From NCBI GenBank assembly GCA_003820375.1, contig RPQH01000008.1, forward strand, positions 8,567 through 72,566: 64,000 nucleotides of DNA, written 5' to 3'. Positions 12,205 to 50,021 of this stretch are shown in pieces. Numbering within the stretch: position 1 is the stretch's first letter; every line of letters starts with the position of its first letter. This stretch comes from Ignavibacteriota bacterium. GTDB lineage: Bacteria; Bacteroidota; Ignavibacteria; Tepidaquicellales; OLB5. The position numbers and the translations under genes were made by a program. Below the pieces are notes generated by a model that was not told the DNA's origin, made no database searches, and was given only the letters and a program-made list of their open reading frames with translations.

Positions 12205-12287
12205 ATTAACAGGGAGTCCTGACAGACCAGAGAGATTTTCAATTAATCCAATGCTTTTTAAATCTTCAATTTCCGAAGGAGCTCGTA

Positions 12288-18886: not shown

Positions 18887-18899
18887 GATATAACAAATA

Positions 18900-18931
18900 T
18901 AACAAAAGCCGGAGATAGAATCCCCGGCTTT
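18900..18931 (-). terminator. Terminator after hydA
   Basis: On the minus strand: aagccgg / ccggctt stem followed by tttgtt. Confidence 0.55.
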
Positions 18932-18944
18932 AATAAATTATTAA

Positions 18945-34924: not shown

Positions 34925-34959
34925 AAAAAGCTGCGGGTAATCGCAGCTTTTTGTTTTTT
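34925..34959 (+). terminator. Rho-independent terminator
   Basis: aaaaagctgcg / cgcagcttttt stem with a 6-nt loop and a T-run. Confidence 0.8.
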
Positions 34960-35492: not shown

Positions 35493-35597
35493 AAATGCTA
35501 CAGTTGATTTGGAGACTGGTTTTTACTGCTGAATTTTGATACGATGATGAGTTAATCTTTTTAGAATACGTGGGTTGATTCTCTTTTATTGTTTACG

Positions 35598-36179
35598 ATG
35601 AAGACAATTATTTTAGGAATGGGAAACACCCTGATAAGTGACGATGGGATAGGGATTGTTACATTGCGTTACCTGGAGAAAGTTTTAAGCCATTGCAAAG
35701 AAATTACCTTCTGCGAGACATCATGGGGTGGATTTAGAATCATAGACTTACTTGAGGGTTTTGATTATGCCGTTGTAATTGATTCAATTAAAACCGGAAA
35801 TAAGCCGACAGGTTCTATATACCATTATAAGCCTACAGATTTACTGCCTACACTGCGTTTAACTTCATACCACGATATAAATTTCATTACGGCATTAAGG
35901 CTTGCAGAGTCAATAAATGCAAAAGTCCCGTCCGATATAGACATTTTCGCCATCGAAGTTGAAGATAACCGCAGCATAAATGAAACAATCAATCCAACGT
36001 TGTGGAACAGCATCAAAGAATGCTCACAAGTCATTGCCGATAAATTATTCGAGAAAAACATTATTACATTTAAAATTCCTGCTGAAGAGTTTATTGGAAT
36101 AAAATCAGTTGATGAACTGGATTTATTATATCCCGAAAAAACAGCAGACAGAATAGAAACCGGATTAATTAACAATTAA
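35598..36179 (+). CDS. Hydrogenase maturation endopeptidase (HycI/FrhD/HoxW family) with C-terminal extension
   Basis: MKTIILGMGNTLISDDGIGI signature. The ORF track begins at TTG 35589; ATG 35598 is preferred. Confidence 0.8.
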   Translation: MKTIILGMGNTLISDDGIGIVTLRYLEKVLSHCKEITFCETSWGGFRIIDLLEGFDYAVVIDSIKTGNKPTGSIYHYKPTDLLPTLRLTSYHDINFITALRLAESINAKVPSDIDIFAIEVEDNRSINETINPTLWNSIKECSQVIADKLFEKNIITFKIPAEEFIGIKSVDELDLLYPEKTADRIETGLINN

Positions 36180-36192
36180 GAAAAATAAAGGA

Positions 36193-36876
36193 ATGAAAAC
36201 CGAGTCTGTACAATTACCAGGTAAATTATCAAAAAGAGAAGAAGATCTGAGATCTTCATTCCTGAAACAACTGGAAACAATACCGAACAGCGAAAAGATA
36301 AAATCCTGCATACAGTGCGGCACATGCACGGGTTCATGCCCGGTATCATATGCCATGGATATTTCGCCAAGAGAGATAATTGCATTGTTCAGGGCAGGAG
36401 ACCTTGAAACCCTTTTGAACAGCAAGTCTATCTGGATATGCGCATCATGCTATTCATGCCAGACAAGATGCCCCTCATTAATAAAAGTTACCGATATAAT
36501 GTATGCTTTGAAACGGCTTGCAATGGAAAAAGGCATATTCCCGAAGAAATTCCCTGCTCCTGCACTTTCAGAGACATTCGTAAAAGTTATGAATAACTAT
36601 GGACGGCTTCATGAGCCATTGCTTATTGTAAGATTTTTACTCAAGACTACTCCGTTCAAATTGCTTAATATGATGCCTTTGAGCCTGAAAATGGCAAAAA
36701 GAAAAAGAGTTGCTTATGTCCCTTCAAAAATAAAAGGACTTGAAGGATTTAAGAAGATAATAAAAAAAGCAGAGTTGATGGATTCTCCAAAGGAACTGCT
36801 GGAACCTCAATATTTGAAAGGTTCAGTTGGATACAGTGCTATTGCCAAAGAAACAGTAATGGAATCTAAAAAATAA
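36193..36876 (+). CDS. hdrC: Heterodisulfide reductase subunit C-like
   Basis: 227-aa ORF with CIQCGTCTGSCP and CASCYSCQTRCP motifs. Confidence 0.85.
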   Translation: MKTESVQLPGKLSKREEDLRSSFLKQLETIPNSEKIKSCIQCGTCTGSCPVSYAMDISPREIIALFRAGDLETLLNSKSIWICASCYSCQTRCPSLIKVTDIMYALKRLAMEKGIFPKKFPAPALSETFVKVMNNYGRLHEPLLIVRFLLKTTPFKLLNMMPLSLKMAKRKRVAYVPSKIKGLEGFKKIIKKAELMDSPKELLEPQYLKGSVGYSAIAKETVMESKK

Positions 36877-36890
36877 ATTAAGTTAATCAA

Positions 36891-37766
36891 ATGGATTATA
36901 CATATTACCCGGGCTGCAGTTTAGAATCAGCTCATAAAAGTTACAGCGATTCTGTTAAAAAAGTTTTTAAACATCTCGATTGTAATCTGATAGAATTGGA
37001 AGATTGGAATTGCTGCGGTGCAACTGCATATATGGGTGTAAAAGAAACCCTGTCATTTGCAATTTCTGCAAGAAACCTTGCACTTGCCGAAAAACATAAA
37101 AGAGATGTTATTGCTCCCTGCAGCGCATGTTATACAGTGTTAAGTAAAACCAACAGGTATTTAAAACAGCTTCCTGATTTTCACCAGAAAGTAAATGAAT
37201 GCCTGAAAGAAGCAGGTCTGCAGTATAATCTGACGGCTAGTGTAAGACATCCCCTTGATGTGCTGATAAATGATATAGGACTTGATAAGATAAAAGAGAA
37301 ATGTGTAAGAAGCCTTAAAGGATTGAAGATTGCTAACTATTACGGATGCCAGCTTGTAAGACCCGAAAGAGGATTTGATGACAGGGAAGTGCCCATGACA
37401 ATGGACAATTTATTTGAAGCATGCGGCGCTGAAAATGTTTATTATCCCTTTAAAGTAAAATGCTGCGGCGGTATGCTGATGACTACTTATGAAGACATTG
37501 CTTTGAAATTATCAAAAGAAATAATTGCATCGGCAGTAGAAAACAAAGCTGATTGTATTGTAACAACGTGCCCGCTTTGCCAGATGAATCTTGAAGCTTA
37601 CCAGGATTTGATTAATAAACATTACAACACGAATTATGACATGCCGGTATTTTTCTTCACCCAGGTTCTGGGAATGGCATTTGGATTTGATGAAAAAGAA
37701 CTTGGAATAGATACACTTTTAACTAAAGGAATTAAATTAAACGGTTTAACAACCATACATAATTAA
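36891..37766 (+). CDS. hdrB: Heterodisulfide reductase subunit B-like (two CCG domains)
   Basis: 291-aa ORF with CCG motifs DWNCCGA and KVKCCGG plus CPLC. Confidence 0.85.
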   Translation: MDYTYYPGCSLESAHKSYSDSVKKVFKHLDCNLIELEDWNCCGATAYMGVKETLSFAISARNLALAEKHKRDVIAPCSACYTVLSKTNRYLKQLPDFHQKVNECLKEAGLQYNLTASVRHPLDVLINDIGLDKIKEKCVRSLKGLKIANYYGCQLVRPERGFDDREVPMTMDNLFEACGAENVYYPFKVKCCGGMLMTTYEDIALKLSKEIIASAVENKADCIVTTCPLCQMNLEAYQDLINKHYNTNYDMPVFFFTQVLGMAFGFDEKELGIDTLLTKGIKLNGLTTIHN

Positions 37767-37772
37767 TATAAC

Positions 37773-38639
37773 ATGGACAACAAATTGTCAACAAACGGTT
37801 CACCAAACGGAGAAATAAGAATAGGTTTCTTTATCTGCCACTGCGGTGTAAATATTTCTACTATTGTTAATGTAGCTGAAGTAAGAGATTATGTAGCCAC
37901 ACTTCCGCACGTTGTTGTATCGAAAGATTATAAGTTCATGTGTTCAGACCCGGGGCAGGAAATAATAATAAATGCCGTAAAGACCAATAAGCTTAACAGG
38001 GTTGTAGTAGCAGCATGTTCACCATTGATGCATGAAGGAACATTCAGAGGTGCCTGTGAAAAAGCGGGAATCAATAAATTTTTATTCCAGATGGCAAATA
38101 TCCGTGAACATTGTTCATGGGTTCATGACGATAAAATTCGTGCAACGGAAAAAGCCAAAGCACTTGCACATGCGGCAGTGAAACGCGTTTCGTTCCATGT
38201 ACCGATGACCGTAAAAAAAGCAAAGGTTAATCCTGATACATTAATAGTAGGCGGAGGAATCTCTGGTATACAGGCAGCACTGGATATAGCTGATTCAGGC
38301 AACAATGTTTACCTGGTGGAAAGAGAACCTTCTATCGGCGGTAAGATGGCTTTGTTCGATAAGACATTCCCAACACTTGACTGCTCTGCTTGTATCTTAA
38401 CGCCTAAGATGGTATCGGTAGGACACAGGGATACAATAAAGTTATATACATGGAGTGAAGTTGTTGCAGTTTCGGGATTTTTAGGAAACTTTAAAGTAAC
38501 AATTAAAAAGAAAGCCCGGTATGTGGATACAGATAAATGCACAGGATGCGGACAATGCTGGAGCCACTGCCCTGCTACGAGATTCCCGTCAAAAAGACAG
38601 GTATTCTTTGGTGATAAACTGATTAACGAAAAAAGATAA
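37773..38639 (+). CDS. hdrA: HdrA N-terminal fragment (N-terminal Cys domain + first part of FAD domain + first half of inserted ferredoxin domain)
   Basis: 288-aa ORF with FICHCG, ACSPLMHE, IREHCSW, the FAD dinucleotide motif LIVGGGISGIQAALDIADSG, and CTGCGQCWSHCP. It stops about 20 codons later. Confidence 0.8.
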   Translation: MDNKLSTNGSPNGEIRIGFFICHCGVNISTIVNVAEVRDYVATLPHVVVSKDYKFMCSDPGQEIIINAVKTNKLNRVVVAACSPLMHEGTFRGACEKAGINKFLFQMANIREHCSWVHDDKIRATEKAKALAHAAVKRVSFHVPMTVKKAKVNPDTLIVGGGISGIQAALDIADSGNNVYLVEREPSIGGKMALFDKTFPTLDCSACILTPKMVSVGHRDTIKLYTWSEVVAVSGFLGNFKVTIKKKARYVDTDKCTGCGQCWSHCPATRFPSKRQVFFGDKLINEKR

Positions 38640-39041
38640 ATGTTACTAAAAGAAATAAAAGAACTGCTTAAATGCAATTGGTATTCTTCAGAAGAATTAC
38701 TGAATAAAGAAATACAATATTGCTTTGCAGCAGACTTAATGAGCGATGTATTAAGATACGGACGCACAGGTTCGCTTTTGATGACCGGCTTAACGAGCAA
38801 TCAAATACTTCAGGTTGCAGAGATACTTGACCTTAGCGGGATAATTTTTGTAAGAGGCAAAAAACCCGATGAAAATATAATAGCTACTGCAGAATTAAGG
38901 AAAATACCATTACTTTCAACTAATTTACTTTTATTTGACTCATGCGGTATACTGTACGCTCAAGGATTACGGGGAGGTAAAAGCAACCTGATGGAAAACG
39001 ATGAACCAAAGAGCAATGTACAGTCAATCGTTCACGATTAA
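38640..39041 (+). CDS. DRTGG domain protein
   Basis: 133-aa ORF whose ATG directly abuts the hdrA-N stop. It has the LMSDVL..GRTGSLLMTG pattern. Confidence 0.7.
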   Translation: MLLKEIKELLKCNWYSSEELLNKEIQYCFAADLMSDVLRYGRTGSLLMTGLTSNQILQVAEILDLSGIIFVRGKKPDENIIATAELRKIPLLSTNLLLFDSCGILYAQGLRGGKSNLMENDEPKSNVQSIVHD

Positions 39042-39441
39042 AGGCGGCGATTTCATAAATGCCGGTACGGTATCGGTTAGAATTAAACGGTTACTGAAAG
39101 AAATAGGCTTAAAACCGGATATAATTTATAGAGCAGCAATTTGCTGTTACGAAGCTGAAATGAATGTGGTCATGTATGCAAACGAGGCAACACTGGATTT
39201 TACGATTACTGTAGAAAATATTACTGTAAAATTATCGGATAAGGGACCGGGAATAAAAAATATAGAGCTCGCAATGAAGGAAGGATATTCGACTGCTACG
39301 GAAAAAATGAGAGAGATGGGTTTTGGCGCAGGAATGGGATTACCAAATATTAAAAATAATGCTGATGTATTCGAGATTGAGTCAGAGATTGCAAAGGGAA
39401 CTATCATCAGCTTTAAGATAAACTTAAATGGAAAGCATTAA
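39001..39441 (+). CDS. Anti-sigma-factor-type GHKL ATPase / serine kinase-like protein
   Basis: 146-aa ORF with HATPase_c-like motifs (DKGPGI, GFGAGMGLPN). Confidence 0.7.
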   Translation: MNQRAMYSQSFTIKGGDFINAGTVSVRIKRLLKEIGLKPDIIYRAAICCYEAEMNVVMYANEATLDFTITVENITVKLSDKGPGIKNIELAMKEGYSTATEKMREMGFGAGMGLPNIKNNADVFEIESEIAKGTIISFKINLNGKH

Positions 39442-40765
39442 TAACGGGAATTCGGGTCATTCAATATATTTCGATCCATCGAAATGTAACGGAGATATGG
39501 CTTGCCTCAGGATTTGCCCTGTAGAAGCTATCAGAGTCCGTAACAGAAAATCATATATGCTTCCGGAGAAATGTATTGATTGCGGTGTATGCGTGCAGGC
39601 ATGCAAATCAAAAGCAATTATTCCTTTAACCAATTCATTTACTGACCTCTCAAGCTTTAAATATACGATTGCAATTCCTTCGCTATCCATTTACAGCCAG
39701 TTTGACAGGCACATTACTCCTGATGTAATACTATCGGCGCTTAAGAAGATAGGTTTTAATGAAGTTGTTGATATAACTAAAGCTTGTGTAACCGTTTACA
39801 AAGCTATAAAAAAATATCTCAATGATAACAAAGGAAGAAAACCGCTTATATGCACATTTTGTCCAACTTGTTTGCGTCTAATTCACACAAAATATCCCGA
39901 GTTAATCCAGCATGTAATACCTGTTATCTCACCGATAGAGTTGGCAGCACGCGAAGCAAGAATTGAATATGCAAAAAGATACAGGGTAAAAAAGGAAGAA
40001 ATCGGAATCATTTACATAACACCATGCCCTTCCAGGTTAGCATTAATATCACAGGAAGATGAAAATTATTATCCAAGCTTTGACGGTGCAATTCCTATTA
40101 CAGATATTTATAACAGCCTTTACGCAGCTATTAATACTACATTAAAAGACAGGCATAACGGAACAGAGCATTTTGCAATGAACGGCTTTGGGCTGCATTT
40201 CGGATACCTGGGCGGACTCAGCTATATGCTCGGCACAAATAATCATATAACAATTTCGGGAATAAACAATGTACAGTTCCTGCTAGATGAAATTGACAAA
40301 GGAAAATTAAGCAATATAGAGTTTGTAGAAATGAACTCATGCCAGGAAGCATGTACCGGTGGCTCATTGGTTGTTGAAAACGCATACATGGCAGTAAATA
40401 AAATGAAATATCTTATTGATGAATTTGGGGAAAAGAAACTGCCCATCGGCAAAAAAGATGATACAGATATTAATTCGGTTTATTCGGATTCAATTTTCCC
40501 TTCTATAAACGGGGAACAAAATAATGTTGACCTTGAAGATGCAATAGGAAAGATATCAAAACGGAATGAAATATATTCACAGCTAATGAAAATAAACTGC
40601 AGTGCATGCGGTTCACCGACATGCATGAGCTTTGCAGAAGATGTTGTGCACGATGAAGCCAATATGAATGACTGCATATTTGTTCAGAATGAAGAGTTAA
40701 AGCATAAGTTAAAAGAAAAGATAATGACAATTCTTGAATTACAGCAAAAGCTTAACGAAAAATGA
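39428..40765 (+). CDS. [FeFe]-hydrogenase-like (H-cluster domain) putative sensory protein with N-terminal 2x4Fe-4S and C-terminal 4-Cys domain
   Basis: 445-aa ORF. Ferredoxin motifs are CNGDMACLRICP and CIDCGVCVQACK. Degenerate H-domain motifs are CTFCPTC (L1-like), TPCPSR (L2-like, no Lys) and EMNSCQEACTGG (L3-like). C-terminal CSACGSPTCMSFAE. Confidence 0.75.
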   Translation: MESINNGNSGHSIYFDPSKCNGDMACLRICPVEAIRVRNRKSYMLPEKCIDCGVCVQACKSKAIIPLTNSFTDLSSFKYTIAIPSLSIYSQFDRHITPDVILSALKKIGFNEVVDITKACVTVYKAIKKYLNDNKGRKPLICTFCPTCLRLIHTKYPELIQHVIPVISPIELAAREARIEYAKRYRVKKEEIGIIYITPCPSRLALISQEDENYYPSFDGAIPITDIYNSLYAAINTTLKDRHNGTEHFAMNGFGLHFGYLGGLSYMLGTNNHITISGINNVQFLLDEIDKGKLSNIEFVEMNSCQEACTGGSLVVENAYMAVNKMKYLIDEFGEKKLPIGKKDDTDINSVYSDSIFPSINGEQNNVDLEDAIGKISKRNEIYSQLMKINCSACGSPTCMSFAEDVVHDEANMNDCIFVQNEELKHKLKEKIMTILELQQKLNEK

Positions 40766-41097
40766 AATTAAAAGAATTAACAGAGAAATGCGGGCTGGAA
40801 ACCGTTAACGGCTTTGCTGATGAAAATAAAGAAATAGCCGGTGCTTATTCAAGTGACCTCCTGAGCGATGTAATTGCCAATGCAAAAAAAGATTTTGTCT
40901 GGATAACATTGCAGACTCATTTAAATATAATTGCAGTAGCAGCACTGAAAGAGCTTGCAGCTATAATAATAGTAAATAATAAAGAAATAGACAAAGATAC
41001 ATTACAAAAAGCGGAAGAAGAAAAAGTTACTCTTTTAAGAACAGGATTAAATACTTTTCAGATAAGCGGAAAAATTTATGAGTGCGGTATTCATTAA
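40762..41097 (+). CDS. DRTGG domain protein
   Basis: 111-aa ORF with the LLSDVI pattern. It is paralogous to 38640-39041. Confidence 0.65.
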   Translation: MKLKELTEKCGLETVNGFADENKEIAGAYSSDLLSDVIANAKKDFVWITLQTHLNIIAVAALKELAAIIIVNNKEIDKDTLQKAEEEKVTLLRTGLNTFQISGKIYECGIH

Positions 41098-41111
41098 AAA
41101 CAAAATGTTTA

Positions 41112-41825
41112 ATGAAAATAAAAGCAGATATCCATATTCATACATGCTTATCACCTTGTGCAGATATATTAATATCGCCAAAAAGAATAGTGGAAAAGGC
41201 ATTTAATACAGATTTAAATATGATTTTTATAACAGACCATAATTCACTTAATAATGCAGAAGCGGCAATCAAAGCTGCCCGGTATTATCCATCGCTTGCA
41301 GTTTACCCCGGTATGGAAATCACTTCAAGAGAGGAAGTTCACATACTCGGACTTTTCGGAAATATGGCTGATGCTCTAAGCACAGAAGAAGTAATTACAA
41401 CTTACCTGCCTGATGCAGTAAGTGATTCTGAATACCGTGAGCAAATCATAGCAAATGAGTTTGATGAAGTTGAAGGGTTCTGTTTAAAATCATTATTCAA
41501 TGCAGTAAATATTAAGACTGAAGATATAATAAAACTTATACACAATAATAACGGAATTGCAGCAGCGGCACATATAGACAGGCCAAGCTTTTCAATAATA
41601 AGCCAATTAGGGTTTATTCCGGATGATATAGGATTTGATGCATTGGAGATTTCACCAAACCTTGATATAGAAAAAGCAAAAGAAAAATATCCTGAATACT
41701 TAGGAAAATATAAATTCTTAAGAGGTTCCGATTCTCATTCATTGAATTGGATAGGTTCCGTTTACACTGAGTTTGAAGGTAAAAATAATACCTTTGGAGA
41801 GTTTGCACAGTATTTAATTTCCTGA
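41112..41825 (+). CDS. PHP-domain phosphoesterase
   Basis: MKIKADIHIHTCLSPC..FITDHN..AAHIDR metal-binding His/Asp pattern. The ORF track start at 41082 overlaps the upstream gene; ATG 41112 is preferred. Confidence 0.75.
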   Translation: MKIKADIHIHTCLSPCADILISPKRIVEKAFNTDLNMIFITDHNSLNNAEAAIKAARYYPSLAVYPGMEITSREEVHILGLFGNMADALSTEEVITTYLPDAVSDSEYREQIIANEFDEVEGFCLKSLFNAVNIKTEDIIKLIHNNNGIAAAAHIDRPSFSIISQLGFIPDDIGFDALEISPNLDIEKAKEKYPEYLGKYKFLRGSDSHSLNWIGSVYTEFEGKNNTFGEFAQYLIS

Positions 41826-41827
41826 TA

Positions 41828-42367
41828 ATGCAGGATATTTCATTACATATACTTGATATAGCTGAAAATTCAATCAAAGCAGGTGCAAATTTTATTGAGA
41901 TAGCGATAAACGAAGATACAGAGAAAAATTCTTTGACAATTGAAATAAGAGACAACGGAAAAGGAATGAGCAGCGAGATGGCTGCTAAAGTGAAGGACCC
42001 GTTTACAACATCAAGGACAGAAAGAAAAGTAGGTTTAGGGCTTTCACTTCTTGAACAGGCAGCAATAGCAGCAGGAGGAAAAGTAACGGTTGAATCTGAA
42101 GAAGGAAAAGGCACAACGGTAAAAGCAGAATTCATGTATGATCATATAGACAGGAAACCGATGGGAAAAATTACTGATACTCTTATTTCGTTATTATCTA
42201 ATGAAAATAATATAGATATCAAATACACTCATAAAAAGAACACAGGTGAATTTGAATTTGTCAGCACACAATTAAAAAGTTTATTAGGATTAAATTCCTT
42301 AAAAGACAGCAAAGTGTTAATTGTACTTAAAGAAATTATAAACTCCAAATTAGAAGAAATATCATAG
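41828..42367 (+). CDS. GHKL (histidine-kinase-like) ATPase domain protein
   Basis: 179-aa ORF with LHILDIAENSIKAGA (N-box), DNGKGM and GLGLSLL. Confidence 0.75.
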   Translation: MQDISLHILDIAENSIKAGANFIEIAINEDTEKNSLTIEIRDNGKGMSSEMAAKVKDPFTTSRTERKVGLGLSLLEQAAIAAGGKVTVESEEGKGTTVKAEFMYDHIDRKPMGKITDTLISLLSNENNIDIKYTHKKNTGEFEFVSTQLKSLLGLNSLKDSKVLIVLKEIINSKLEEIS

Positions 42368-42375
42368 GAGAAAAA

Positions 42376-42828
42376 ATGGAAGCTGATGTTATCGACAAAA
42401 TAATAGAGAAACATCCTAAAGAGCCATCATCAATTATACAGGTACTTCTTGATGTTCAAAGTGAACTGTATTATTTACCCGAAGATGTTCTTAAATACGT
42501 TTCCGCTGAATTAAAAGTACCTATAAGCAGAACTTACAATCTTGCTACGTTTTATAAAGCATTCAGCTTAAAGCCAAAAGGCAAACATCCTATTTCAGTT
42601 TGTACGGGTACTGCCTGTTACGTTGAAGGTGCTGATAAATTAATGGAGCAGTTTGAAAGAGAATTGGGTATAAAAGACGGGGAGACAACTGCTGACAAGA
42701 AATTCAGCTTAGAAAGTGTAAGATGTCTTGGCTGCTGCGGATTAGCACCTGTAGTAACAGTAGGCAAGAACTTACATGGCAAGCTGCCGTCTTCAAAAGT
42801 TGGTAAAATTTTAAAACAATATAAATAA
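42376..42828 (+). CDS. NuoE/HydC-like 2Fe-2S subunit
   Basis: 150-aa ORF with CTGTAC...CLGCCGLAP. Confidence 0.9.
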   Translation: MEADVIDKIIEKHPKEPSSIIQVLLDVQSELYYLPEDVLKYVSAELKVPISRTYNLATFYKAFSLKPKGKHPISVCTGTACYVEGADKLMEQFERELGIKDGETTADKKFSLESVRCLGCCGLAPVVTVGKNLHGKLPSSKVGKILKQYK

Positions 42829-42836
42829 AAAGTAAA

Positions 42837-43226
42837 ATGGCTTCAAAAATATCAATCGAAGACTTAGCCAAAATAAGGAAAGAGACATTGAGAACGATGA
42901 ACCTGAGAGAAGGTTCAGGAAAAGTTAAGATGAATGTGCATATGGGTACATGCGGTATTGCAGCAGGAGCAAGGAAAATCCTCGAGGCAGTACTGAGCGA
43001 GGTTGAAACACGCGGGCTAAATGATATAATAGTAACAAATTCCGGCTGTGCAGGGCTTTGCAGCCAGGAACCTATGATGACTGTAGAGGTCTATAACGAA
43101 CCGGCACCGGTTAAATATGTTTCTCTTACACCGGAAAAGGTTAAAAAGATTTTTGATTCACACGTTTTAAAAGGTGAAATAGTAAAAGAATATGCACTCG
43201 CTTTAGGCAGCGAGACAACGGTATAA
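42837..43226 (+). CDS. Thioredoxin-like [2Fe-2S] ferredoxin
   Basis: 129-aa ORF with MGTCGIAAGA...GCAGLCSQEP. Confidence 0.8.
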   Translation: MASKISIEDLAKIRKETLRTMNLREGSGKVKMNVHMGTCGIAAGARKILEAVLSEVETRGLNDIIVTNSGCAGLCSQEPMMTVEVYNEPAPVKYVSLTPEKVKKIFDSHVLKGEIVKEYALALGSETTV

Positions 43227-43252
43227 AGTTTTTTAACTAAAGGAGTAAATAA

Positions 43253-45079
43253 ATGGCATACAGAACATATTTAATGGTATGCGCGGGTACTGGATGTGTA
43301 GCCAATAACTCGATGAAAATTAAAGAAAAGCTGGAAGATGAATTACTTAAACGGGGAATTCATAATGAGGTCAGTGTAGTAACAACAGGATGCAACGGCT
43401 TCTGTGCTGCAGGACCTCTGATGGTTGTACAACCCGATGGAGTATTTTACCAGCTTTTAAAAGAGAGCGATATTCCACTGCTTGTAGAAGAGCATTTCAT
43501 AAAAGGACGGCCGGTAAAGAAATTAATGTACACTCCTCCCAAGGAGAAGTCGTCTATCCCGAAAATGTCAGACATCCCCTTCTTTGCTAACCAAACTTTG
43601 ATTGCATTGAAAAACAGGGGCCTGATTGACCCGGAAAAAATTGACGAATACATTGCAAGAGGCGGTTATGAGGCCCTTGCAAAAGTATTAACTACAATGA
43701 CATCTGAAGAGGTAATAAAAGAGATTAAAGATTCCGGTTTACGCGGCAGAGGAGGCGGAGGATTCCCAACAGGTATTAAATGGGAAACCTGTAAGAGAAT
43801 GGAAGCTGATACAAGGTATGTTATCTGTAATGCAGATGAGGGTGACCCCGGTGCATTCATGGATAGAAGCATTATTGAATCAGACCCTCATGCAGTTTTA
43901 GAAGGAATGTGTATAGGTGCATTTGCCATCGGTGCTTCTGACGGATATATCTATATCAGGAATGAATACCCTATTGCACTGCAAAGATTGCAGGTAGCAA
44001 TTAAGCAGGCACGTGAATACGGTCTTCTGGGGAAGAACATATTCGGTACAGATTTCAGCTTTGATGTCAGGATAGTCAGAGGAGCCGGAGCATTCGTTTG
44101 CGGTGAATCAACTGCACTCATGGCATCAATAGAAGGCAAGCCGGGCGAACCGAGAGCTAAATATGTTCATACGGTTGAAAAAGGACTTCACGATAAGCCG
44201 ACATGTCTTAATAATGTTGAGACATGGGCTAATGTTGCACAGATAATAACCAGAGGTGCTTCATGGTTCTCAAGCATAGGTACCGGAGATGTCTCCGAAG
44301 ATGCATGGGGCGGAAGTAAAGGTACAAAAGTATTTTCACTTTCAGGTAAAGTAAATAACACCGGATTAATAGAAGTACCGATGGGTATATCACTCCGCCA
44401 GATAATTTATGATATAGGCGGCGGAATAAAAGACGGAAAGAAATTTAAAGCTGTACAGACAGGCGGACCATCAGGCGGATTTATTCCTGAAAGCCTGCTT
44501 GACCTGCCGGTTGATTATGAAGAACTGACTAGAGTCGGCTCTATGATGGGTTCCGGAGGTATGGTTGTTACCGATGAGGATAACTGCATGGTTGAAATGG
44601 CAAAATATTTTCTCAGCTTCACACAGGCTGAATCATGCGGAAAATGTATTCCATGCAGGGAAGGTACAAAGAGAATGCTGGATATACTTGAAAAAATAAC
44701 AACCGGTGAAGGCACTGAAGAAGATCTTGTATTGCTTGAAGAGCTTTCATACATGGTTGTTGACTCATCGCTGTGTGCTTTAGGCGGTTCAGCACCGAAC
44801 CCGGTATTGACTACCTTAAAATATTTCAGAGATGAATACGAGACTCACGTAAGAGATAAAAAGTGTCCTGCTCACTGCTGCAAAGCTTTAATAAAGTACT
44901 CGATCGATCCGAATATATGCGTAGAAAAAGGACATGGCTGCGGTGTATGTTCAAAGAGCTGTCCTGACGGAGCAATAATAGGTGAATCAAAACAGGTACA
45001 CTATATTGACCTGATGAAATGCGGAAAATGCGGCATATGTTATGACTCGTGTAAGTTTAATGCAATTTATATTGAATAA
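43253..45079 (+). CDS. NuoF/HydB-like flavoprotein, long form (N-terminal 2Fe-2S + FMN/NADH + C-terminal 2x4Fe-4S)
   Basis: 608-aa ORF. N-terminal CAGTGC..GCNGFCAAGP, then GRGGGGFPTG and ESCGKCIPCREG. The C-terminus carries CVEKGHGCGVCSKSCP and CGKCGICYDSC. Confidence 0.9.
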   Translation: MAYRTYLMVCAGTGCVANNSMKIKEKLEDELLKRGIHNEVSVVTTGCNGFCAAGPLMVVQPDGVFYQLLKESDIPLLVEEHFIKGRPVKKLMYTPPKEKSSIPKMSDIPFFANQTLIALKNRGLIDPEKIDEYIARGGYEALAKVLTTMTSEEVIKEIKDSGLRGRGGGGFPTGIKWETCKRMEADTRYVICNADEGDPGAFMDRSIIESDPHAVLEGMCIGAFAIGASDGYIYIRNEYPIALQRLQVAIKQAREYGLLGKNIFGTDFSFDVRIVRGAGAFVCGESTALMASIEGKPGEPRAKYVHTVEKGLHDKPTCLNNVETWANVAQIITRGASWFSSIGTGDVSEDAWGGSKGTKVFSLSGKVNNTGLIEVPMGISLRQIIYDIGGGIKDGKKFKAVQTGGPSGGFIPESLLDLPVDYEELTRVGSMMGSGGMVVTDEDNCMVEMAKYFLSFTQAESCGKCIPCREGTKRMLDILEKITTGEGTEEDLVLLEELSYMVVDSSLCALGGSAPNPVLTTLKYFRDEYETHVRDKKCPAHCCKALIKYSIDPNICVEKGHGCGVCSKSCPDGAIIGESKQVHYIDLMKCGKCGICYDSCKFNAIYIE

Positions 45080-45090
45080 AGGAGAACAAC

Positions 45091-46854
45091 ATGATAAAAT
45101 TAACTATAGACGGAAAACAACTCGAGGTTTTTGAAGATACCTCTATATTAAAAGCTGCGGAAAAAGCTGGTATTTGGATACCTACTATGTGTCATTGTGA
45201 TTACATAGAACCATATGGTGTATGCCGTCTTTGCAGTGTTGAGGTGGTAAAAGGAAAAAGAAGCCGTATTGTAACTGCCTGCAACTATCCCGTCAGGGAA
45301 GGGCTTACGGTCAGAACAAACTCCGAAAGAGTAAAATGGATAAGAAAAATCATTATGGAGCTTATGCTTTCACGCTGGCCTAATGTTCCCGCTGTAAAGG
45401 AAATGGCTGAACAGCTTGGTATATCCAAACCAAGATTTGAAAGCAAAGAAAAAGATGAAGCTGAAGATGCATGTATATTATGCGGTATGTGCGTTAATGT
45501 TTGCAATGACCTTGTAGGTAAAGGCGTACTCGGATTTTCGAAAATGGGAATTGAAAGAGAAGTTGTTCTTCCTTACAATGAACGCTCGGAAGAATGTATC
45601 GCATGCGGTGCATGCGCTTATGTTTGCCCGACCAAGCATATTAAAGTTAAATCACTTGAATATGAAAGAGGAGCAATACAGGACTGGAGCCTAGCATCCA
45701 AAACTGCAATTTATGTTCCTACCATGCAGGCTGTACCAAGAGTACCGACTATCGATGAGGCATCCTGTATCAACAAGCAAACCGGCGGATGTAAAGCATG
45801 TCAAACATACTGCGAGCCGGGAGCTATAAATTATGATATGAAAGATGAAGAAATCGAGGTCGAAGTTGGACAGATACTGATTACTACAGGATACCAGCTT
45901 ATGGACCTGACAAAGATGCCGCAGTTTGGTTACGGGCGTCTTGATAATGTATATTCATCACTTGATTTTGAACATATGCTTAACTCAACCGGACCGACTA
46001 ACGGTACAATTCAGTGTAAAGACGGCTCAGTTCCAAGAGCAGTTGGTATTATTCACTGCATTGGTTCAAGAGATGAAAATTATCACAAATACTGCTCAAG
46101 AGTATGCTGTATGTATGCTCTGAAATTTGCACATCTTATTAAAGACAGAACAACAGCAGAAGTATATCAATTCTATATTGATATGAGGGCATTTGGAAAA
46201 GGGTATGAAGAATTCTACAAGAGACTGCTTGATGAAGGAGTAAACATGATAAGAGGTAAAGTCGGAGAAGTAACCGAATGCAGGGTTGACGGCGAAAAGC
46301 CATTCCTGAAAGTTGCATGTGAAGATACACTAATAGGAAAATTCAGGGAAATTCCGCTTGATATGGTAATCCTGTGTCCTGCAATAGAATCGAATGCAGA
46401 CTCATCGGATTTGAAAAAGATATTCTCAATCAGCCAGAGTCCTGATAAATTCTTCCTCGAAAGACATCCAAAGCTTGACCCGATGTCAACAATGACAGAC
46501 GGAATATTTATAGCAGGGTGTGCCCAGGGACCGAAGGATATTCCGGATTCGGTTGCACAGGCATCAGGAGCCGCAGCAAAGATATTATCACTTATTTCAG
46601 TTGGTGAAGTTGCAGTTGATCCTATCAAAGCTGAAATAGTTGAAGAACGCTGCAGCGGATGCCGTATCTGTAATAACCTGTGTCCGTACGGTGCTATATC
46701 ATATATTGATGAAAAGAAAATATCCTTCATTAATGATATGTTATGCAAAGGATGCGGAACATGTGTAGCTGCATGCCCGTCATCAGTAATTACAGGCAAA
46801 GGATTCACAGATGCACAGATAATGGCAGAAATTGAAGGCTTATTGGCTATATAA
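45091..46854 (+). CDS. Fusion protein: HydA/NuoG-type 2Fe-2S + 2x4Fe-4S N-domain joined to the C-terminal two-thirds of HdrA
   Basis: 587-aa ORF. Residues 1-~190 resemble the N-terminus of hydA in this window (IDGK..ILKAA..IPTMCH..GVCRLCSVEV; CILCGMCVNVC; CIACGACAYVCP). The rest continues HdrA exactly where 37773-38639 stops (KTAIYVPTMQAVP..C..CKACQTYC..ILITTGY..IHCIGSRD..CSRVCC..IFIAGCAQGPKDI..CSGCRICNNLCP..CKGCGTCVAACP). Confidence 0.85.
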   Translation: MIKLTIDGKQLEVFEDTSILKAAEKAGIWIPTMCHCDYIEPYGVCRLCSVEVVKGKRSRIVTACNYPVREGLTVRTNSERVKWIRKIIMELMLSRWPNVPAVKEMAEQLGISKPRFESKEKDEAEDACILCGMCVNVCNDLVGKGVLGFSKMGIEREVVLPYNERSEECIACGACAYVCPTKHIKVKSLEYERGAIQDWSLASKTAIYVPTMQAVPRVPTIDEASCINKQTGGCKACQTYCEPGAINYDMKDEEIEVEVGQILITTGYQLMDLTKMPQFGYGRLDNVYSSLDFEHMLNSTGPTNGTIQCKDGSVPRAVGIIHCIGSRDENYHKYCSRVCCMYALKFAHLIKDRTTAEVYQFYIDMRAFGKGYEEFYKRLLDEGVNMIRGKVGEVTECRVDGEKPFLKVACEDTLIGKFREIPLDMVILCPAIESNADSSDLKKIFSISQSPDKFFLERHPKLDPMSTMTDGIFIAGCAQGPKDIPDSVAQASGAAAKILSLISVGEVAVDPIKAEIVEERCSGCRICNNLCPYGAISYIDEKKISFINDMLCKGCGTCVAACPSSVITGKGFTDAQIMAEIEGLLAI

Positions 46855-46895
46855 TAAAAGATTTAAGAGAAATATAATTTAATATTCATATTATA

Positions 46896-47327
46896 ATGGA
46901 AACTCAAATAAAATCAAAAGAGAATTTTAATCCAAGGATAGTTGCCTTTCTTTGCAACTGGTGTACATACACAGGTGCAGACCTTGCAGGTGTAGCACGC
47001 ATGAAATCTTCACCAAGTGTCCGTGTAATAAGGACCATGTGCAGCGGAAGAGTTGACCCTACATTTGTTTTAAAAGCGTTCAAGATGGGAGCTGACGGAG
47101 TTATGATAGGCGGATGCCACATCGGAGACTGTCATTATTCAGAAGGTAATTTTAAAACATTGAGAAGGGTGGAATTTCTTAAGATAATGCTGAAGGATTT
47201 TGGTATTGACCCCAAAAGATTACGGCTTGAATGGATATCTGCTTCGGAAGGTGATAAATATGCTCATGTTACAAATGAGTTCGAGAAGGAACTGAGAGAA
47301 CTGGGACCATTAGTATTACAGGAGTAA
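46896..47327 (+). CDS. mvhD: MvhD/FlpD-like hydrogenase delta subunit
   Basis: 143-aa ORF with FLCNWCTY..GADLAG..CSGRVDP..GGCHIGDCHY. Confidence 0.9.
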   Translation: METQIKSKENFNPRIVAFLCNWCTYTGADLAGVARMKSSPSVRVIRTMCSGRVDPTFVLKAFKMGADGVMIGGCHIGDCHYSEGNFKTLRRVEFLKIMLKDFGIDPKRLRLEWISASEGDKYAHVTNEFEKELRELGPLVLQE

Positions 47328-47540
47328 TTCCCAAATACCAAAGCAAAGAATAATAAATAAAAATGAACCACAAAGACACTAAGCAAAAGAGAAATTGAAT
47401 TATTAAGTAAAGATGTTGAATTGATAAAAACAGTCTTACATGAACAATATTTAACTTAGCAGCTTTGTGACTTAGCAGTAAAAGATGTTTGAAAGATATT
47501 GAAATTTAAAAAATAGAAGTAAATTTAAAATTACAAAATC

Positions 47541-48527
47541 ATGTCTAAACCAAAACTTGCATTATATTGGGCTTCATCTTGCGGCGGATGTGAGATAGCT
47601 GTAGTAGATCTGGAAGCAAAAATTCTTGATGTAGCCGGTTTCTTTGAAATTGTGTTATGGCCTTGTGTAATGGATTTTAAATATAAAGATATTGAAGCAC
47701 TGCCTGACGGCGATATTACACTCTGCCTGTTCAACGGAGCAATAAGAACTTCCGAGAATGAACATCTTGCAAAAATGCTCAGGGCAAAATCTAAAGTAAT
47801 GGTTGCTTTCGGCTCATGTGCAGGTGACGGAGCTATTCCTTCATTAGCTAATTTCTACGATAAGGACTCTATATACGAATACGTTTTCAAAACATGTCCT
47901 TCACTGGAAGAATCATCCAGGGGTGTTTATCCGGAGACTAAAACTACTATGCCCGAGGGTGAAATCGAAATACCGGTCTTCTGGGAAACGGTAAAAACAC
48001 TTGACCAGGTGATTGATGTTGATTATTATATTCCCGGCTGCCCGCCGCAGACATTTCAGATAGCAGCAGCAGTTGAAGCTGTAATTGATATTCTGCAGAA
48101 CGGTAAGCCGCTTCCTCCAAAGGGAACAGTATTAGGTGCCGGAGATAAAACATGCTGTGATGACTGCACCAGAGTAAAGAGCGAAAAGAAGATAAAAAAA
48201 TTCTACAGGCCGCAGGATATAATTACTGATCCCGAACAATGCCTGCTGGAGCAGGGTATTGTTTGCATGGGACCTGCTACACGCAATGGATGTGAAGCAT
48301 TATGCATGAAAGCAAACATGGGATGCAGAGGATGTTACGGACCTCCTGAAGGTGTGCTTGACCAGGGTGCCAAGATGGTTTCTGCTTTAAGCTCGGTCAT
48401 TGACGCTCAGAATCCTGAAGACGCAAAGAAAATAATAGATACCATTGCAGATCCGCTTGGTACATTTTACAGGTTTTCAATGGCTTCATCAATATTAAGA
48501 AGAGTACAGAAAAAAAATAACAAGTAA
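47541..48527 (+). CDS. mvhG: [NiFe]-hydrogenase small subunit (group 3, Mvh/F420-non-reducing type)
   Basis: 328-aa ORF with WASSCGGCEI, PGCPP and a C-terminal CMGPATRNGCEALC..GCRGCYGP. Confidence 0.88.
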   Translation: MSKPKLALYWASSCGGCEIAVVDLEAKILDVAGFFEIVLWPCVMDFKYKDIEALPDGDITLCLFNGAIRTSENEHLAKMLRAKSKVMVAFGSCAGDGAIPSLANFYDKDSIYEYVFKTCPSLEESSRGVYPETKTTMPEGEIEIPVFWETVKTLDQVIDVDYYIPGCPPQTFQIAAAVEAVIDILQNGKPLPPKGTVLGAGDKTCCDDCTRVKSEKKIKKFYRPQDIITDPEQCLLEQGIVCMGPATRNGCEALCMKANMGCRGCYGPPEGVLDQGAKMVSALSSVIDAQNPEDAKKIIDTIADPLGTFYRFSMASSILRRVQKKNNK

Positions 48528-48545
48528 ACTTTATTATCTAATACA

Positions 48546-50021
48546 ATGAGACAAATAAAAATTGACCCAGTAACAAGATTAGAAGGACATGGCAAAATAG
48601 ACATTTTTGTAAATGATGAGGGTAACGTTGAGAATTGTTATTTTCAGGTTCCCGAGTTAAGAGGATTCGAGAAATTTGCCCAGGGACGCCCGGTAGAAGA
48701 AATGCCAAGAATAACGACAAGAATTTGCGGTGTATGCCCTGAAGCTCATCATATGGCAGCCGCCAAAGCATGTGATGCTGTCTATAAAGTAAAAATTCCT
48801 TCTGCAGGAAAAAAACTGAGAGAACTGCTTTATAATGTATTTTATACAACCGACCATACGGTTCACTTTTATGCACTTGGCGGACCGGATTTTGTTGTTG
48901 GTCCCGATGCTCCTGCAGCAGAAAGAAACATTATTGGTGTGATAAACAAAGTAGGTTTGGAAGTAGGCGGCAAGGTAATAAAGCTCAGGTCTATGTGCCA
49001 GGAGATAATCCAGATGCTCGGCGGAAAGAAAATCCACCAGGTTGCAGCTATTCCCGGCGGCGTATCAAGAGGAATTAACAACGAAGAAAGAGATAAGATT
49101 AAAGAATATTCTAAATATTTTGTGGATTTCGGACAATTTACTTTTAAGATATTCGAAGACATAGTTCTGAAGAACAAAGCATATGTTGATATGATACTTT
49201 CCGACCCGTTTGTACATAAGACATATTACATGGGAATGGTAGATGAGAATAACCAGGTAAACTTCTACGATGGAAAAGTTAAGGTTGTTGATCCTGACGG
49301 AAACGAATTCTGCAAATACAGTCCAGAAGATTATCTAAAGCATATTACTGAACATACTGAGAAATGGAGCTATTTAAAATACCCGTATCTTAAGAACGTG
49401 GGATGGAAGGGATTTGTTGACGGAAAAGACAGCGGTGTTTACCGTGCAACCCCTCTTTCAAGATTGAACGTTACAAATGGAATGCCCACTCCCCTTGCTC
49501 AGGCAGAATATGAAAAATATTTTGAGACATTAACAGGCGACAAGTCAGGAAAGAAACCGGTTCACCACACACTTGCAACACACTGGGCAAGAATAATCGA
49601 GCTTCAGTATGCAGCAGAGAAGGTTGTGGAATTGATTAATGACCCTGAGATAACTTCACCTGATTACAGAGCTATTCCAACTGAAATTCCTACCGAAGGA
49701 ATTGGAATAGTAGAAGCTCCAAGAGGAACTTTGACACATCATTACAAAACCGATGAAAGAGGAATTGTAACTGAAGCCAACTTAATTGTTGGAACAACAA
49801 ACAACCATGCTGCAATTTCAATGTCAATTAAAAAAGCAGCACAGGGATTAATACACAAAGGTGTTGAAATTACCGATGGTGTATTGAACAGGATAGAAAT
49901 GGCATTCAGAGCATATGACCCGTGTTTCGGATGTGCAACACATTCCTTACCGGGAGAGATGCCGATAGAACTAAATATAAGAAATTCTGAAGGCGAGATA
50001 ATACAGACAGCTAAGAGATAA
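48546..50021 (+). CDS. mvhA: [NiFe]-hydrogenase large subunit (group 3, Mvh type)
   Basis: 491-aa ORF. N-terminal RICGVCPEAHH and C-terminal DPCFGCATH are followed by a 25-aa cleavable extension. Confidence 0.92.
   Translation: MRQIKIDPVTRLEGHGKIDIFVNDEGNVENCYFQVPELRGFEKFAQGRPVEEMPRITTRICGVCPEAHHMAAAKACDAVYKVKIPSAGKKLRELLYNVFYTTDHTVHFYALGGPDFVVGPDAPAAERNIIGVINKVGLEVGGKVIKLRSMCQEIIQMLGGKKIHQVAAIPGGVSRGINNEERDKIKEYSKYFVDFGQFTFKIFEDIVLKNKAYVDMILSDPFVHKTYYMGMVDENNQVNFYDGKVKVVDPDGNEFCKYSPEDYLKHITEHTEKWSYLKYPYLKNVGWKGFVDGKDSGVYRATPLSRLNVTNGMPTPLAQAEYEKYFETLTGDKSGKKPVHHTLATHWARIIELQYAAEKVVELINDPEITSPDYRAIPTEIPTEGIGIVEAPRGTLTHHYKTDERGIVTEANLIVGTTNNHAAISMSIKKAAQGLIHKGVEITDGVLNRIEMAFRAYDPCFGCATHSLPGEMPIELNIRNSEGEIIQTAKR

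Follow-up and report, generated by a model that had tools for sequence, protein, structure and literature searches.

In a 64,000-nucleotide stretch of contig RPQH01000008.1 from an Ignavibacteriota bacterium (the window), the operon at 35055-50021 encodes an HdrA that is cut in two inside its inserted ferredoxin domain, with the genes of a Bfu-type module (BfuC, BfuB and BfuA, of NuoE, NuoF and NuoG type) located in the break and the distal half of HdrA fused to the BfuA part. Flavin-based electron bifurcation is the route of strict anaerobes to low-potential reductant; to our knowledge, four types of bifurcating module are known and the series coupling of two of these, Bfu and HdrA, in one enzyme was first shown in 2026. 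The split HdrA design is old, fixed and widespread, and is not peculiar to the window genome. As judged from its gene content, the locus probably encodes a hydrogenase complex with two coupled electron-splitting sites. The chances are about even that it specifies one redox complex, consisting of MvhAGD, HdrBC with the two-polypeptide HdrA, and BfuABC (plus a small 2Fe-2S protein), in which the split inserted ferredoxin domain would connect the low-potential branch from the flavin adenine dinucleotide (FAD) of HdrA to Bfu. Domain calls were based on Pfam and NCBIfam, and structural matches on alignment to solved proteins.

The two open reading frames (ORFs) that carry HdrA sequence were compared with the solved HdrA 8rvu_a. 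The 288-amino-acid (aa) N-fragment aligned over residues 14-268 with HdrA 11-266 (E 2e-96) and ends 21 codons past the first CxxCxxCxxxCP of the inserted ferredoxin domain, while the 587-aa fusion protein aligned over residues 201-585 with HdrA 276-653 (E 3e-111). Splicing of N-fragment residues 1-270 to fusion residues 197-587 in silico yielded a 661-aa chain that aligned uninterruptedly over residues 14-659 with HdrA 11-653 (E 8e-210), and because the only indels were a gap of three residues at the junction and five residues inserted into the second ferredoxin motif, the two pieces tile one HdrA without loss or overlap. Pairwise alignment thereby bore out two proposals of the initial annotation, namely that hdrA is broken directly after the first motif of the inserted domain and that both ORFs belong to a single HdrA. 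Rather than one HdrA chain of about 650 aa, the operon contains two ORFs that lie 6.4 kb apart, and these scored 365 and 424 bits against NCBIfam HdrA models with cut-offs of 1100-1400, over the complementary ranges 1-256 and 239-640. NCBIfam holds no model dedicated to either piece.

All cluster motifs of bifurcating HdrA are retained in the spliced protein. The N-terminal Cys-rich [4Fe-4S] domain is present in the N-fragment (residues 14-148 aligned with HdrA 11-145), with the cysteines of CHCG, MCSDPG and AACSP kept. The TrxR-like FAD domain is also present but is shared by two polypeptides, with GGGISG and LDCSAC in the N-fragment and the remainder at about residues 250-505 of the fusion. 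Of the inserted ferredoxin domain, motif 1 (CTGCGQCWSHCP) is found in the N-fragment and motif 2 (C226-x7-C-x2-C-x3-C241) in the fusion, where it is invariant in eight diverse homologs, and the C-terminal 2x[4Fe-4S] ferredoxin domain of HdrA corresponds to fusion residues 516-568. Because the break lies inside the inserted domain, the FAD fold and both [4Fe-4S] clusters of that domain would be built from two polypeptides. Single-sequence structure prediction of the spliced chimera, run without an alignment, returned a mean predicted local distance difference test score of 34 and a predicted template modelling score of 0.23, too low for a usable model.

In a single genome, a truncated ORF that stops soon after a conserved motif looks like a disrupted gene, and the 288-aa ORF could be taken for a non-functional insertion remnant or a sequencing artefact in a decaying hdrA, with only the downstream genes at work. 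This explanation is hardly credible and is already contradicted, as the short form is the norm across hundreds of independent assemblies (66-100% identity, constant length), keeps all cysteines and the GxGxxG, has a tail that is conserved across phyla, and is fused to NuoE in other loci, whereas the distal half carries no FAD-binding beta-alpha-beta of its own. Among the best 120 N-fragment homologs nearly all are 284-296 aa long, with identity down to 66%, and the best 120 fusion homologs are 586-615 aa long and at least 69% identical. A frameshift or misassembly at the junctions was considered separately and excluded, since the following gene starts, with its ATG, directly after the TAA stop codon of the N-fragment, and relatives share the short form.

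The tail of free-standing N-fragments (window 38574-38636) follows the cross-phylum pattern P-x-x-R-x-[IL]-x-x-G-x-x-x-[ILV] and is without counterpart in canonical HdrA. It was seen in L001, L003-L007, L011, L012, L016, L017, L027, L028, L034, L037, L046, L049, L051 and L066 (L numbers denote the related loci described below), and one clade extends it by a further 35 aa or so. The tail might serve as a strand for docking to BfuA or BfuC.

Nine genes separate the two HdrA halves in the window, encoding, in order, DRTGG, HATPase, [FeFe]-hydrogenase-like, DRTGG, PHP, HATPase, NuoE, small 2Fe-2S and NuoF proteins. The initial annotation had described a nine-gene cassette that splits hdrA, which is correct as a count for this genome; across relatives, only nuoE-nuoF always lies between the halves and the six regulatory genes are movable. 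The BfuB protein aligned over residues 2-605 with residues 3-594 of 7t2r_B (E 1e-241) and also end to end with 7q4v_B, 8a6t_B and 9mqx_B (E 4e-215), so that its closest solved matches are proven bifurcating HydB/BfuB subunits. With the full domain set in BfuB, a full-length BfuC and a Type-2 BfuA, the inserted module belongs to the Bfu family.

The leader of the fusion matched NuoG/HydA-type N-terminal modules over residues 2-187, with as best match 9mqx_A (E 4e-37), the BfuA of a tungsten-oxidoreductase Bfu enzyme. Pfam identified Fer2_4 (residues 1-78) and a 2x[4Fe-4S] domain (128-182) in it but did not find PF10588, the domain of the His-ligated cluster, in the fusion; the HydA encoded elsewhere in the window (18945-20837, minus strand) does carry PF10588. 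The description of the distal HdrA half as joined to a 2Fe-2S plus 2x[4Fe-4S] leader without the His-ligated cluster therefore holds. Type-2 BfuA proteins are defined by the presence of clusters A1, A2 and A4 and the absence of A3 (His-ligated) and A5 (PMC9304861). The H-cluster domain PF02906 is absent from the fusion and from eight non-Hdr relatives of the leader that were checked, and the non-Hdr relatives sampled from the genome scan comprised free BfuA proteins of about 250 aa, BfuA::AFOR and BfuA::GcvH, with no [FeFe] hydrogenase among them. Because it has A1, A2 and A4 without A3, because its best match is 9mqx_A and because the sampled relatives are not hydrogenases, the leader is, on sequence grounds, a Type-2 BfuA and not a truncated HydA. 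The HydA-type N-terminus named by the initial annotation thus stands as homology (8a6t_A, E 2e-31) and not as identity, and a [FeFe]-hydrogenase operon that lacks its H-domain, the proposed source of the insert, describes it less well. In eight sequences that are 41-67% identical, none of the 16 cluster cysteines in the leader and the second ferredoxin motif is replaced. An origin by recent recombination within the window, with the [FeFe]-hydrogenase operon at 17501-22886, was rejected, as its short 405-aa NuoF and its HydA with a His-cluster domain are of a different type.

Type-2 BfuA also occurs in other fusions. It is joined to GcvH, the lipoyl carrier H-protein, in L080 (9986-11314) and to AFOR_C in L056 (9995-11980), L075 (9395-11428) and L081 (2487-4502), in each case directly 3' of nuoE-nuoF. 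Hdr-like systems of sulfur oxidisers employ lipoate-binding proteins, and by analogy the GcvH fusion could mean that Bfu acts on a lipoyl disulfide.

The distribution of the design was determined in a scan of one genome per species (GTDB), using as query an alignment of fusion residues 1-270, which span the junction. At least 575 relatives were confirmed among the matches listed; 80 loci were kept and the window proteins were mapped onto their ORFs. The BfuA::HdrA-C fusion is present in 63 of these 80 loci, covering at least 15 phyla including archaea, and in two metagenome loci (L001 and L002). Carriers include Ignavibacteria, Acidobacteriota (Bryobacterales, Terriglobia, Thermoanaerobaculia, Aminicenantes), Chloroflexota, Desulfobacterota, Planctomycetota, Spirochaetota, Verrucomicrobiota, Zixibacteria, Armatimonadota, Gemmatimonadota, Cloacimonadota, Fibrobacterota, Altiarchaeales and Thermoplasmata. 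When the 63 genome loci and both metagenome loci were pooled, 57 fusion loci had enough upstream flank to be assessed, and in 52 of them an HdrA N-piece that ends right past the first ferredoxin motif (CxxCxxCxxxC[P/L]) precedes nuoE-nuoF. It is nuoE-nuoF that separates the HdrA halves, whereas the six regulatory genes are variable, and the conserved core is therefore hdrA_N(::)bfuC – bfuB – bfuA::hdrA_C. Moreover, an exhaustive profile-free search recovered the same N-terminal architecture in clusters that are only 34-51% identical. One of these, P0270, is an unsplit version that runs from a Rossmann piece and the first motif through an acidic linker and a BfuA-like module to the second motif and the rest of HdrA, and it adjoins AFOR and a second HdrA-like gene.

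The related loci fall into several layouts. Type Ia, to which the window belongs, has the order hdrCB – hdrA_N – six regulatory genes – nuoE – fdx – nuoF – fusion – mvhDGA and was seen in Ignavibacteria, Bryobacterales, other Acidobacteriota, metagenome-assembled genomes (MAGs) labelled 'Eubacteriales', and Aminicenantes. The metagenome locus L001 (307-kb contig, fusion 71% identical) has the same 17-gene order, plus a small ORF and a radical-SAM gene before mvhD. Type Ib is as type Ia minus the regulatory genes (e.g., L011, L034, L066). In type II (e.g., L010, L013, L022), a short Rossmann-only piece, often fused to NuoE, is followed by nuoF, a protein of about 1090 aa and mvhD; the large protein consists of BfuA::HdrA-C and then a complete second HdrA, and such a double HdrA is found only in type II relatives. 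A five-gene regulatory set lies between nuoF and the fusion in the type II loci L022, L030, L038-40, L042, L061 and L069. MvhAGD is present in all type I loci.

Both sides of the break are marked by gene fusions. The HdrA N-piece, consisting of the Rossmann piece with or without the N-terminal domain, shares one reading frame with NuoE in 22 loci (L010, L022, L030-L033, L035, L038-L040, L042, L045, L047, L050, L057-L059, L061, L065, L068, L069 and L078), via a linker of about 15-40 aa that often lacks a methionine, and the C-piece is joined to the leader in every fusion locus. Fusions such as HdrA_N::NuoE and leader::HdrA_C are classically read as a sign that the partners interact physically. 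The spacer between the last BfuA cluster motif and the QAVP of HdrA measures 30-41 aa in every fusion and includes the HdrA-derived PSEFDxGL or, in type I, LGPxxAI; this constant spacer points to one insertion point everywhere.

Some loci deviate from these layouts. In L008 (8301-12171, an Anaerolineae chromosome), the fusion and mvhD lie behind a NuoF without the N-terminal 2Fe-2S domain; neither nuoE nor an hdrA N-piece was found in the 10 kb upstream, and an ABC transporter is encoded on the other strand. Its close relatives L012, L021, L024, L028 and L043 have the full set, and L026, L041, L048 and L060 resemble L008. In L002 (96-1685; fusion 51% identical), a 529-aa protein with a NuoF-type 4Fe-4S region and a GltD/NfnB-like FAD/NAD(P)H domain precedes the fusion and mvhDGA on a contig that ends upstream of this gene, and by its domains this protein is a candidate for a different NAD(P)H module mounted on the shared scaffold. 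The short HdrA Rossmann piece and MvhD of Desulfobacterota and some other type II loci each contain one in-frame stop, with homology continuing on either side of it (L013 793-1239, L014 6208-6681, L018 7099-7539, L020, L044, L061, L071, L077), as would be expected for selenocysteine (TGA), judged from homology.

The closest counterpart of the host enzyme is MvhAGD-HdrABC of hydrogenotrophic methanogens (5ODC, 8RVU), which has the same six subunit types in the same relative gene order. The window HdrA pieces are collinear with it over 643 residues, MvhA matched at E 1e-114, and HdrB has both CCG sites; HdrB aligned in full with 8rvv_B (residues 1-275 with 1-279, E 5e-49), keeping CC(G/P)A, CxxC, YGC, CCG and CPxC, and its score of 217 bits against NCBIfam TIGR03288 is under the cut-off of that model. 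MvhA, MvhG and MvhD are encoded together beside hdr genes, as is characteristic of the Mvh-type (group 3c), an assignment made from subunit matches. Unlike the methanogen enzyme, HdrA in the window consists of two polypeptides, broken in the inserted ferredoxin domain, and the break holds the genes of a covalently attached BfuCBA module. As a bacterium, the host has no methanogenic heterodisulfide, and the low-potential acceptor would probably be the built-in Bfu instead of free ferredoxin.

The only characterised enzyme that joins these modules is the class II benzoyl-CoA reductase BamBCDEFGHI of Geobacter metallireducens, with Bfu-type BamGHI, HdrA-type BamE, MvhD-like BamF and HdrBC-like BamD (bioRxiv 10.64898/2026.04.10.717634). 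It resembles the window locus in the coupling of Bfu to HdrA, and the type II relatives have BamE-like double HdrA proteins. However, no AFOR domain like that of the tungsten protein BamB was found among the ORFs of 35055-50021, which encode a [NiFe] hydrogenase in place of a BamBC module; the window HdrA is single and not a BamE-like fused double; the inserted ferredoxin domain has BfuA fused into it, in contrast to the free-standing BamI, which docks on the C-terminal ferredoxin domain; and HdrB is canonical, whereas the distal cluster of BamD is degenerate. BfuB matches those of Type 2 Bfu (Wor-Bfu, 9MQX) and NiFe-Bfu (7T2R) end to end, and the leader has the clusters of Type 2 (PMC9304861), but the third partner in the window is an HdrA half fused to BfuA. 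The Bfu classification of Schut et al. 2022 lists Bam-Bfu, and its main text and one supplementary file contain no Hdr-fused class and no Ignavibacteria (PMC9304861). The same insertion site is used in ANME-1 HdrA variants and Desulfobacterium HdrL, which carry an NAD(P)H-linked NfnB-like domain in the inserted ferredoxin domain (PMC9012536); in those proteins the insert is one domain within an unbroken polypeptide, whereas in the window a three-subunit module is inserted at the gene level and HdrA is split. HydABC/HndABCD share the set of NuoE, small 2Fe-2S protein and long NuoF as well as a HydA N-terminus homologous to the leader, but the BfuA-like protein of the window is without an H-cluster domain and without the His-ligated cluster. 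The small 2Fe-2S protein is presumably comparable to HndB, an extra subunit.

Physical assembly of these subunits into one complex is very likely given the fusions and the conserved gene order. The Bfu module would be located beside the inserted ferredoxin domain, since one half of that domain is tethered to BfuA at its A4-bearing end and the other to BfuC at its N-terminus. Low-potential electrons of Mvh-Hdr leave for ferredoxin through the inserted ferredoxin domain (PMC9012536), and Type-2 BfuA proteins trade electrons via their A4 cluster (PMC9304861). A direct connection between the inserted domain and A4 is accordingly somewhat favoured, and the most economical wire would run from the FAD through the inserted-domain clusters to A4, A2, A1 and BfuB. 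The view that a two-polypeptide HdrA is reconstituted with a new Fe-S wire to the NuoF-like subunit was judged right, considering the NuoE fusions in 22 loci and the leader fusion in every fusion locus.

The direction and stoichiometry of electron flow are proposed more tentatively, at somewhat less than even confidence. The FAD would bifurcate, sending the high-potential electron to HdrC/HdrB and a disulfide, and the low-potential electron through the split inserted ferredoxin domain and the BfuA cluster chain to BfuBC and not to free ferredoxin. BfuBC would use this electron for the reduction of NAD+ and ferredoxin. If MvhAGD supplies the electrons and HdrBC is the high-potential sink, H2 and a disulfide would in this way drive NAD+ and ferredoxin reduction in a two-stage bifurcation.

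Several observations weigh against this scheme. Its members are known from sequence only, and every carrier traced (cluster members, six proteins checked) is a MAG. In class II benzoyl-CoA reductase, the only characterised enzyme with Bfu and HdrA, BamI docks the C-terminal ferredoxin domain/BamF, at the FAD input side (bioRxiv 10.64898/2026.04.10.717634), and the 30-41-residue tether could be compatible with such docking here too. Many type II relatives lack a neighbouring hydrogenase, and in those loci Bfu may be donor and not acceptor. Furthermore, five loci with full upstream flank are without an adjacent N-piece and NuoE (L008, L026, L041, L048, L060).

The foremost alternative is a wiring like that of the benzoyl-CoA reductase, where the inserted ferredoxin domain feeds a low-potential output module, BamGHI (Bfu) is the confurcating input and an N-terminal bundle of BamG touches BamI (bioRxiv 10.64898/2026.04.10.717634). 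Transferred to the window, NADH and reduced ferredoxin would deliver mid-potential electrons via BfuA to the C-terminal ferredoxin domain/MvhD and on to the FAD of HdrA, the hydrogenase would serve as an alternative donor or H2-evolving outlet, and the link to the inserted domain would be a mere tether. This is the only experimentally resolved Bfu-HdrA coupling, the tether is in principle long enough, and the first HdrA modules of type II group in a tree with their Bam-like counterparts (100/100 neighbour-joining (NJ) bootstrap); for the hydrogenase-free type II loci, which show no other obvious donor, this wiring is favoured. For the window locus it is rather unlikely, as both ends of the Bfu block are attached to halves of the same small ferredoxin domain, which places the A4 domain and the BfuC N-terminus beside it, and type I loci are always accompanied by MvhAGD, an established FAD donor. 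Moreover, with HdrBC and free ferredoxin as outputs, ferredoxin would be cycled without net gain.

Energetic coupling could also be absent altogether, with the FAD and clusters of HdrA merely linking hydrogenase, NAD(H) and disulfide as in a Hox-like hydrogenase or NADH:disulfide reductase. Outside methanogens, many complexes with NuoF and HdrA are believed to be non-bifurcating (PMC5861303), and MvhA is equally near to its counterpart in the NAD-linked NiFe-Bfu enzyme. Such a non-bifurcating hub is improbable, however, as HdrA has all cluster motifs of bifurcating HdrA, and the reduced form of NuoF is shown by the other NuoF of the window (405 aa). The most far-reaching version of the bifurcating reading is a tandem bifurcation machine, in which the low-potential HdrA branch is hard-wired into Bfu via a two-polypeptide ferredoxin domain, disulfide-pulled H2 oxidation drives simultaneous NAD+ and ferredoxin reduction in the reverse order of the benzoyl-CoA reductase cascade, and the arrangement arose at least twice by bfuCBA insertion into the same loop of two HdrA lineages; as a whole, this proposal is speculative and on the unlikely side.

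The evolutionary history of the design was assessed in a NJ tree of the HdrA core (301 columns), with bootstraps on a 63-taxon subset from which four outliers had been removed beforehand, a crude method. Type I formed a clade (87/100 NJ bootstrap) that in the full 120-sequence tree lies beside canonical single HdrA, whereas type II first modules grouped with unsplit Bam-like first modules (100/100) and type II alone was not monophyletic. At least two HdrA lineages thus seem to have the split-with-Bfu design, via repeated insertion, module exchange or re-fusion. In the simplest origin, a bfuCBA operon would have been inserted into the hdrA reading frame, making both fusions at once, and in the window lineage the 5' fusion would later have been separated and the regulatory set inserted there. 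Recombination into hdrA, as invoked by the initial annotation, thus remains a good scenario for the origin in the form of a bfuCBA insertion, but one that is ancient and possibly repeated and not a peculiarity of this genome, given its presence in 63/80 kept loci. Across 46 loci, the proteins vary together in their identity to those of the window (r ~0.5-0.7), in keeping with their being inherited as one unit, and operon placement that departs from taxonomy points to lateral transfer.

The six DRTGG, kinase, PHP and hydrogenase-like genes are a movable regulatory accessory outside the enzyme, and in many relatives they are placed elsewhere or absent. A DRTGG-kinase-PHP-hydrogenase-like regulatory set is typically found upstream in HydABC/HndABCD operons. 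The hydrogenase-like member (39428-40765) keeps the four cysteines that hold the H-cluster, has lost the proton-relay Cys (TSCCP to TFCP) and ends in a PF04060 Fe-S domain as in the gamma subunit of CODH/ACS; by these features it looks like a sensor and not a catalyst. The five-gene set of type II loci is without this protein. The separate [FeFe]-hydrogenase operon on the minus strand has a short NuoF, which suggests that it encodes a non-bifurcating, NADH-linked type.

The features of both operons are given in Table 1. All genes of 35055-50021 are on the plus strand and are packed tightly or overlap. A strong terminator-like hairpin lies just 5' of the operon (34925-34952), and the terminator scan revealed none comparable inside. 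The transcription unit possibly begins at the Rrf2 gene, whose operon membership is assigned from position. A promoter scan yielded promoter-like sites no more often than expected by chance, and an Rfam scan of the whole window returned no match. The putative protease gene has an ortholog at the same position in L001 that carries PF01750 HycI (BLASTP similarity 34-59% across loci), and downstream of mvhA a second HycI is followed by hypB/F/D. The window proteins are entries of a public Ignavibacteriae bacterium MAG (RPI19135.1).

Table 1. Coordinates of the genes and gene parts in the split-hdrA operon and in the separate [FeFe]-hydrogenase operon of the window.
Coordinates	Strand	Feature	Basis and remarks
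35055-35492	+	Rrf2-family transcriptional regulator	PF02082, E 2e-23; first gene past the terminator-like hairpin
35589-36179	+	Putative hydrogenase maturation protease, HycI-like, weak	No Pfam match at E<=1e-5
36193-36876	+	HdrC, two [4Fe-4S] clusters	Fer4_8/Fer4_17; position kept in type I loci
36891-37766	+	HdrB, both CCG motifs (non-cubane cluster sites)	8rvv_B match
37773-38639	+	HdrA N-fragment, 288 aa	N-terminal Cys domain, GxGxxG FAD beta-alpha-beta, CSxC, first CxxCxxCxxxCP (38538-38573), 21-residue tail
38640-39041	+	DRTGG-domain protein, regulatory accessory	PF07085; position differs between relatives
39001-39441	+	HATPase_c_2, anti-sigma-factor-like Ser/Thr kinase, regulatory accessory	PF13581/PF02518; NCBIfam spIIAB-like, weak
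39428-40765	+	[FeFe]-hydrogenase-like sensor-type protein, 445 aa	2x[4Fe-4S], partial H-domain, PF04060; TFCP for TSCCP
40762-41097	+	Second DRTGG-domain protein, regulatory accessory	Pfam
41082-41825	+	PHP-domain phosphoesterase, regulatory accessory	Pfam
41828-42367	+	Histidine-kinase-like ATPase, regulatory accessory	Pfam, NCBIfam
42376-42828	+	BfuC / NuoE-type [2Fe-2S] subunit	PF01257 full length, E 3e-51
42837-43226	+	Small thioredoxin-like [2Fe-2S] protein	PF01257 partial; in some, not all, related loci
43253-45079	+	BfuB / long NuoF, 608 aa	N-terminal 2Fe-2S Trx-like, FMN/NAD(H) site, [4Fe-4S], C-terminal 2x[4Fe-4S] ferredoxin domain
45091-45660	+	BfuA-type leader of fusion, residues 1-190	[2Fe-2S] A1, 2x[4Fe-4S] A2 and A4; without His-ligated A3
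45661-46854	+	Linker (~residues 181-203), then HdrA C-fragment	Second ferredoxin motif Cx7CxxCxxxC (45766-45813), rest of TrxR-like FAD domain, C-terminal 2x[4Fe-4S]
46896-47327	+	MvhD, [2Fe-2S] adaptor	PF02662, E 1e-52
47541-48527	+	MvhG-type [NiFe]-hydrogenase small subunit	PF01058; conserved position
48546-50021	+	MvhA-type [NiFe]-hydrogenase large subunit	7t2r_D, E 2e-117; MvhA 5odc_F, E 1e-114
22500-22886	-	Response regulator	Separate [FeFe]-hydrogenase operon (17501-22886)
22033-22506	-	NuoE	Separate [FeFe]-hydrogenase operon
20815-22032	-	Short NuoF, 405 aa	Separate [FeFe]-hydrogenase operon; without extra Fe-S domains
18945-20837	-	HydA, 630 aa	Separate [FeFe]-hydrogenase operon; His-cluster domain and small-subunit domain
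17501-18886	-	Histidine kinase	Separate [FeFe]-hydrogenase operon

Several smaller observations were made along the operon. The first DRTGG ORF and the following HATPase ORF, called from its first ATG, overlap by 41 nt, and the real start of the HATPase gene may be further downstream. The 214-nt AT-rich gap between mvhD and mvhG (47328-47540) is the only sizeable intergenic space of the operon and gave no Rfam match. The extra genes of L001 between the fusion and mvhD (11782-12889) are a 58-aa ORF and the radical-SAM gene. The gene before the terminator (window 33719-34897) encodes two receiver domains with a Cys-containing linker of about 150 aa between them and no Pfam-recognised output domain.

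In the literature, no description was found of a split HdrA with embedded Bfu, HdrA-NuoG fusions, an Hdr-type Bfu, Hdr in Ignavibacteria or the DRTGG/PHP cassette, and an earlier mention in HdrA reviews is possible. Genome papers name such genes merely "NuoEFG" beside "HdrA/MvhD" (PMC4046663, PMC12142623, PMC13343851), the public names of the fusion are "4Fe-4S dicluster domain-containing protein" and "HdrA-like polyferredoxin", and a survey of archaeal fusions noted HdrA-HdrA-MvhD fusions but not the BfuA::HdrA-C fusion. The split HdrA would explain such orphan "NuoEFG" and "truncated HdrA" annotations.

The locus represents a coupling of Bfu and HdrA that is different from that in benzoyl-CoA reductase and much more widespread, being found in Ignavibacteria, Acidobacteriota, Chloroflexota, Desulfobacterota, Planctomycetota, several candidate phyla and archaea, and the fusions on either side of the break tell which parts touch. 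It is also a case of a general kind, in which a multi-subunit module is inserted at the operon level into a loop of another enzyme, so that the host fragments must rebuild a flavin site and two iron-sulfur clusters. The putative Mvh-Hdr-Bfu supercomplex offers a defined target for structural biology and enzymology, with the prediction that the inserted ferredoxin domain passes electrons to A4 of BfuA. Finally, if HdrA, NuoEF and group 3c hydrogenases are scored one by one in a metabolic reconstruction, the hydrogen and NADH metabolism of the organisms that carry this locus will be misread.

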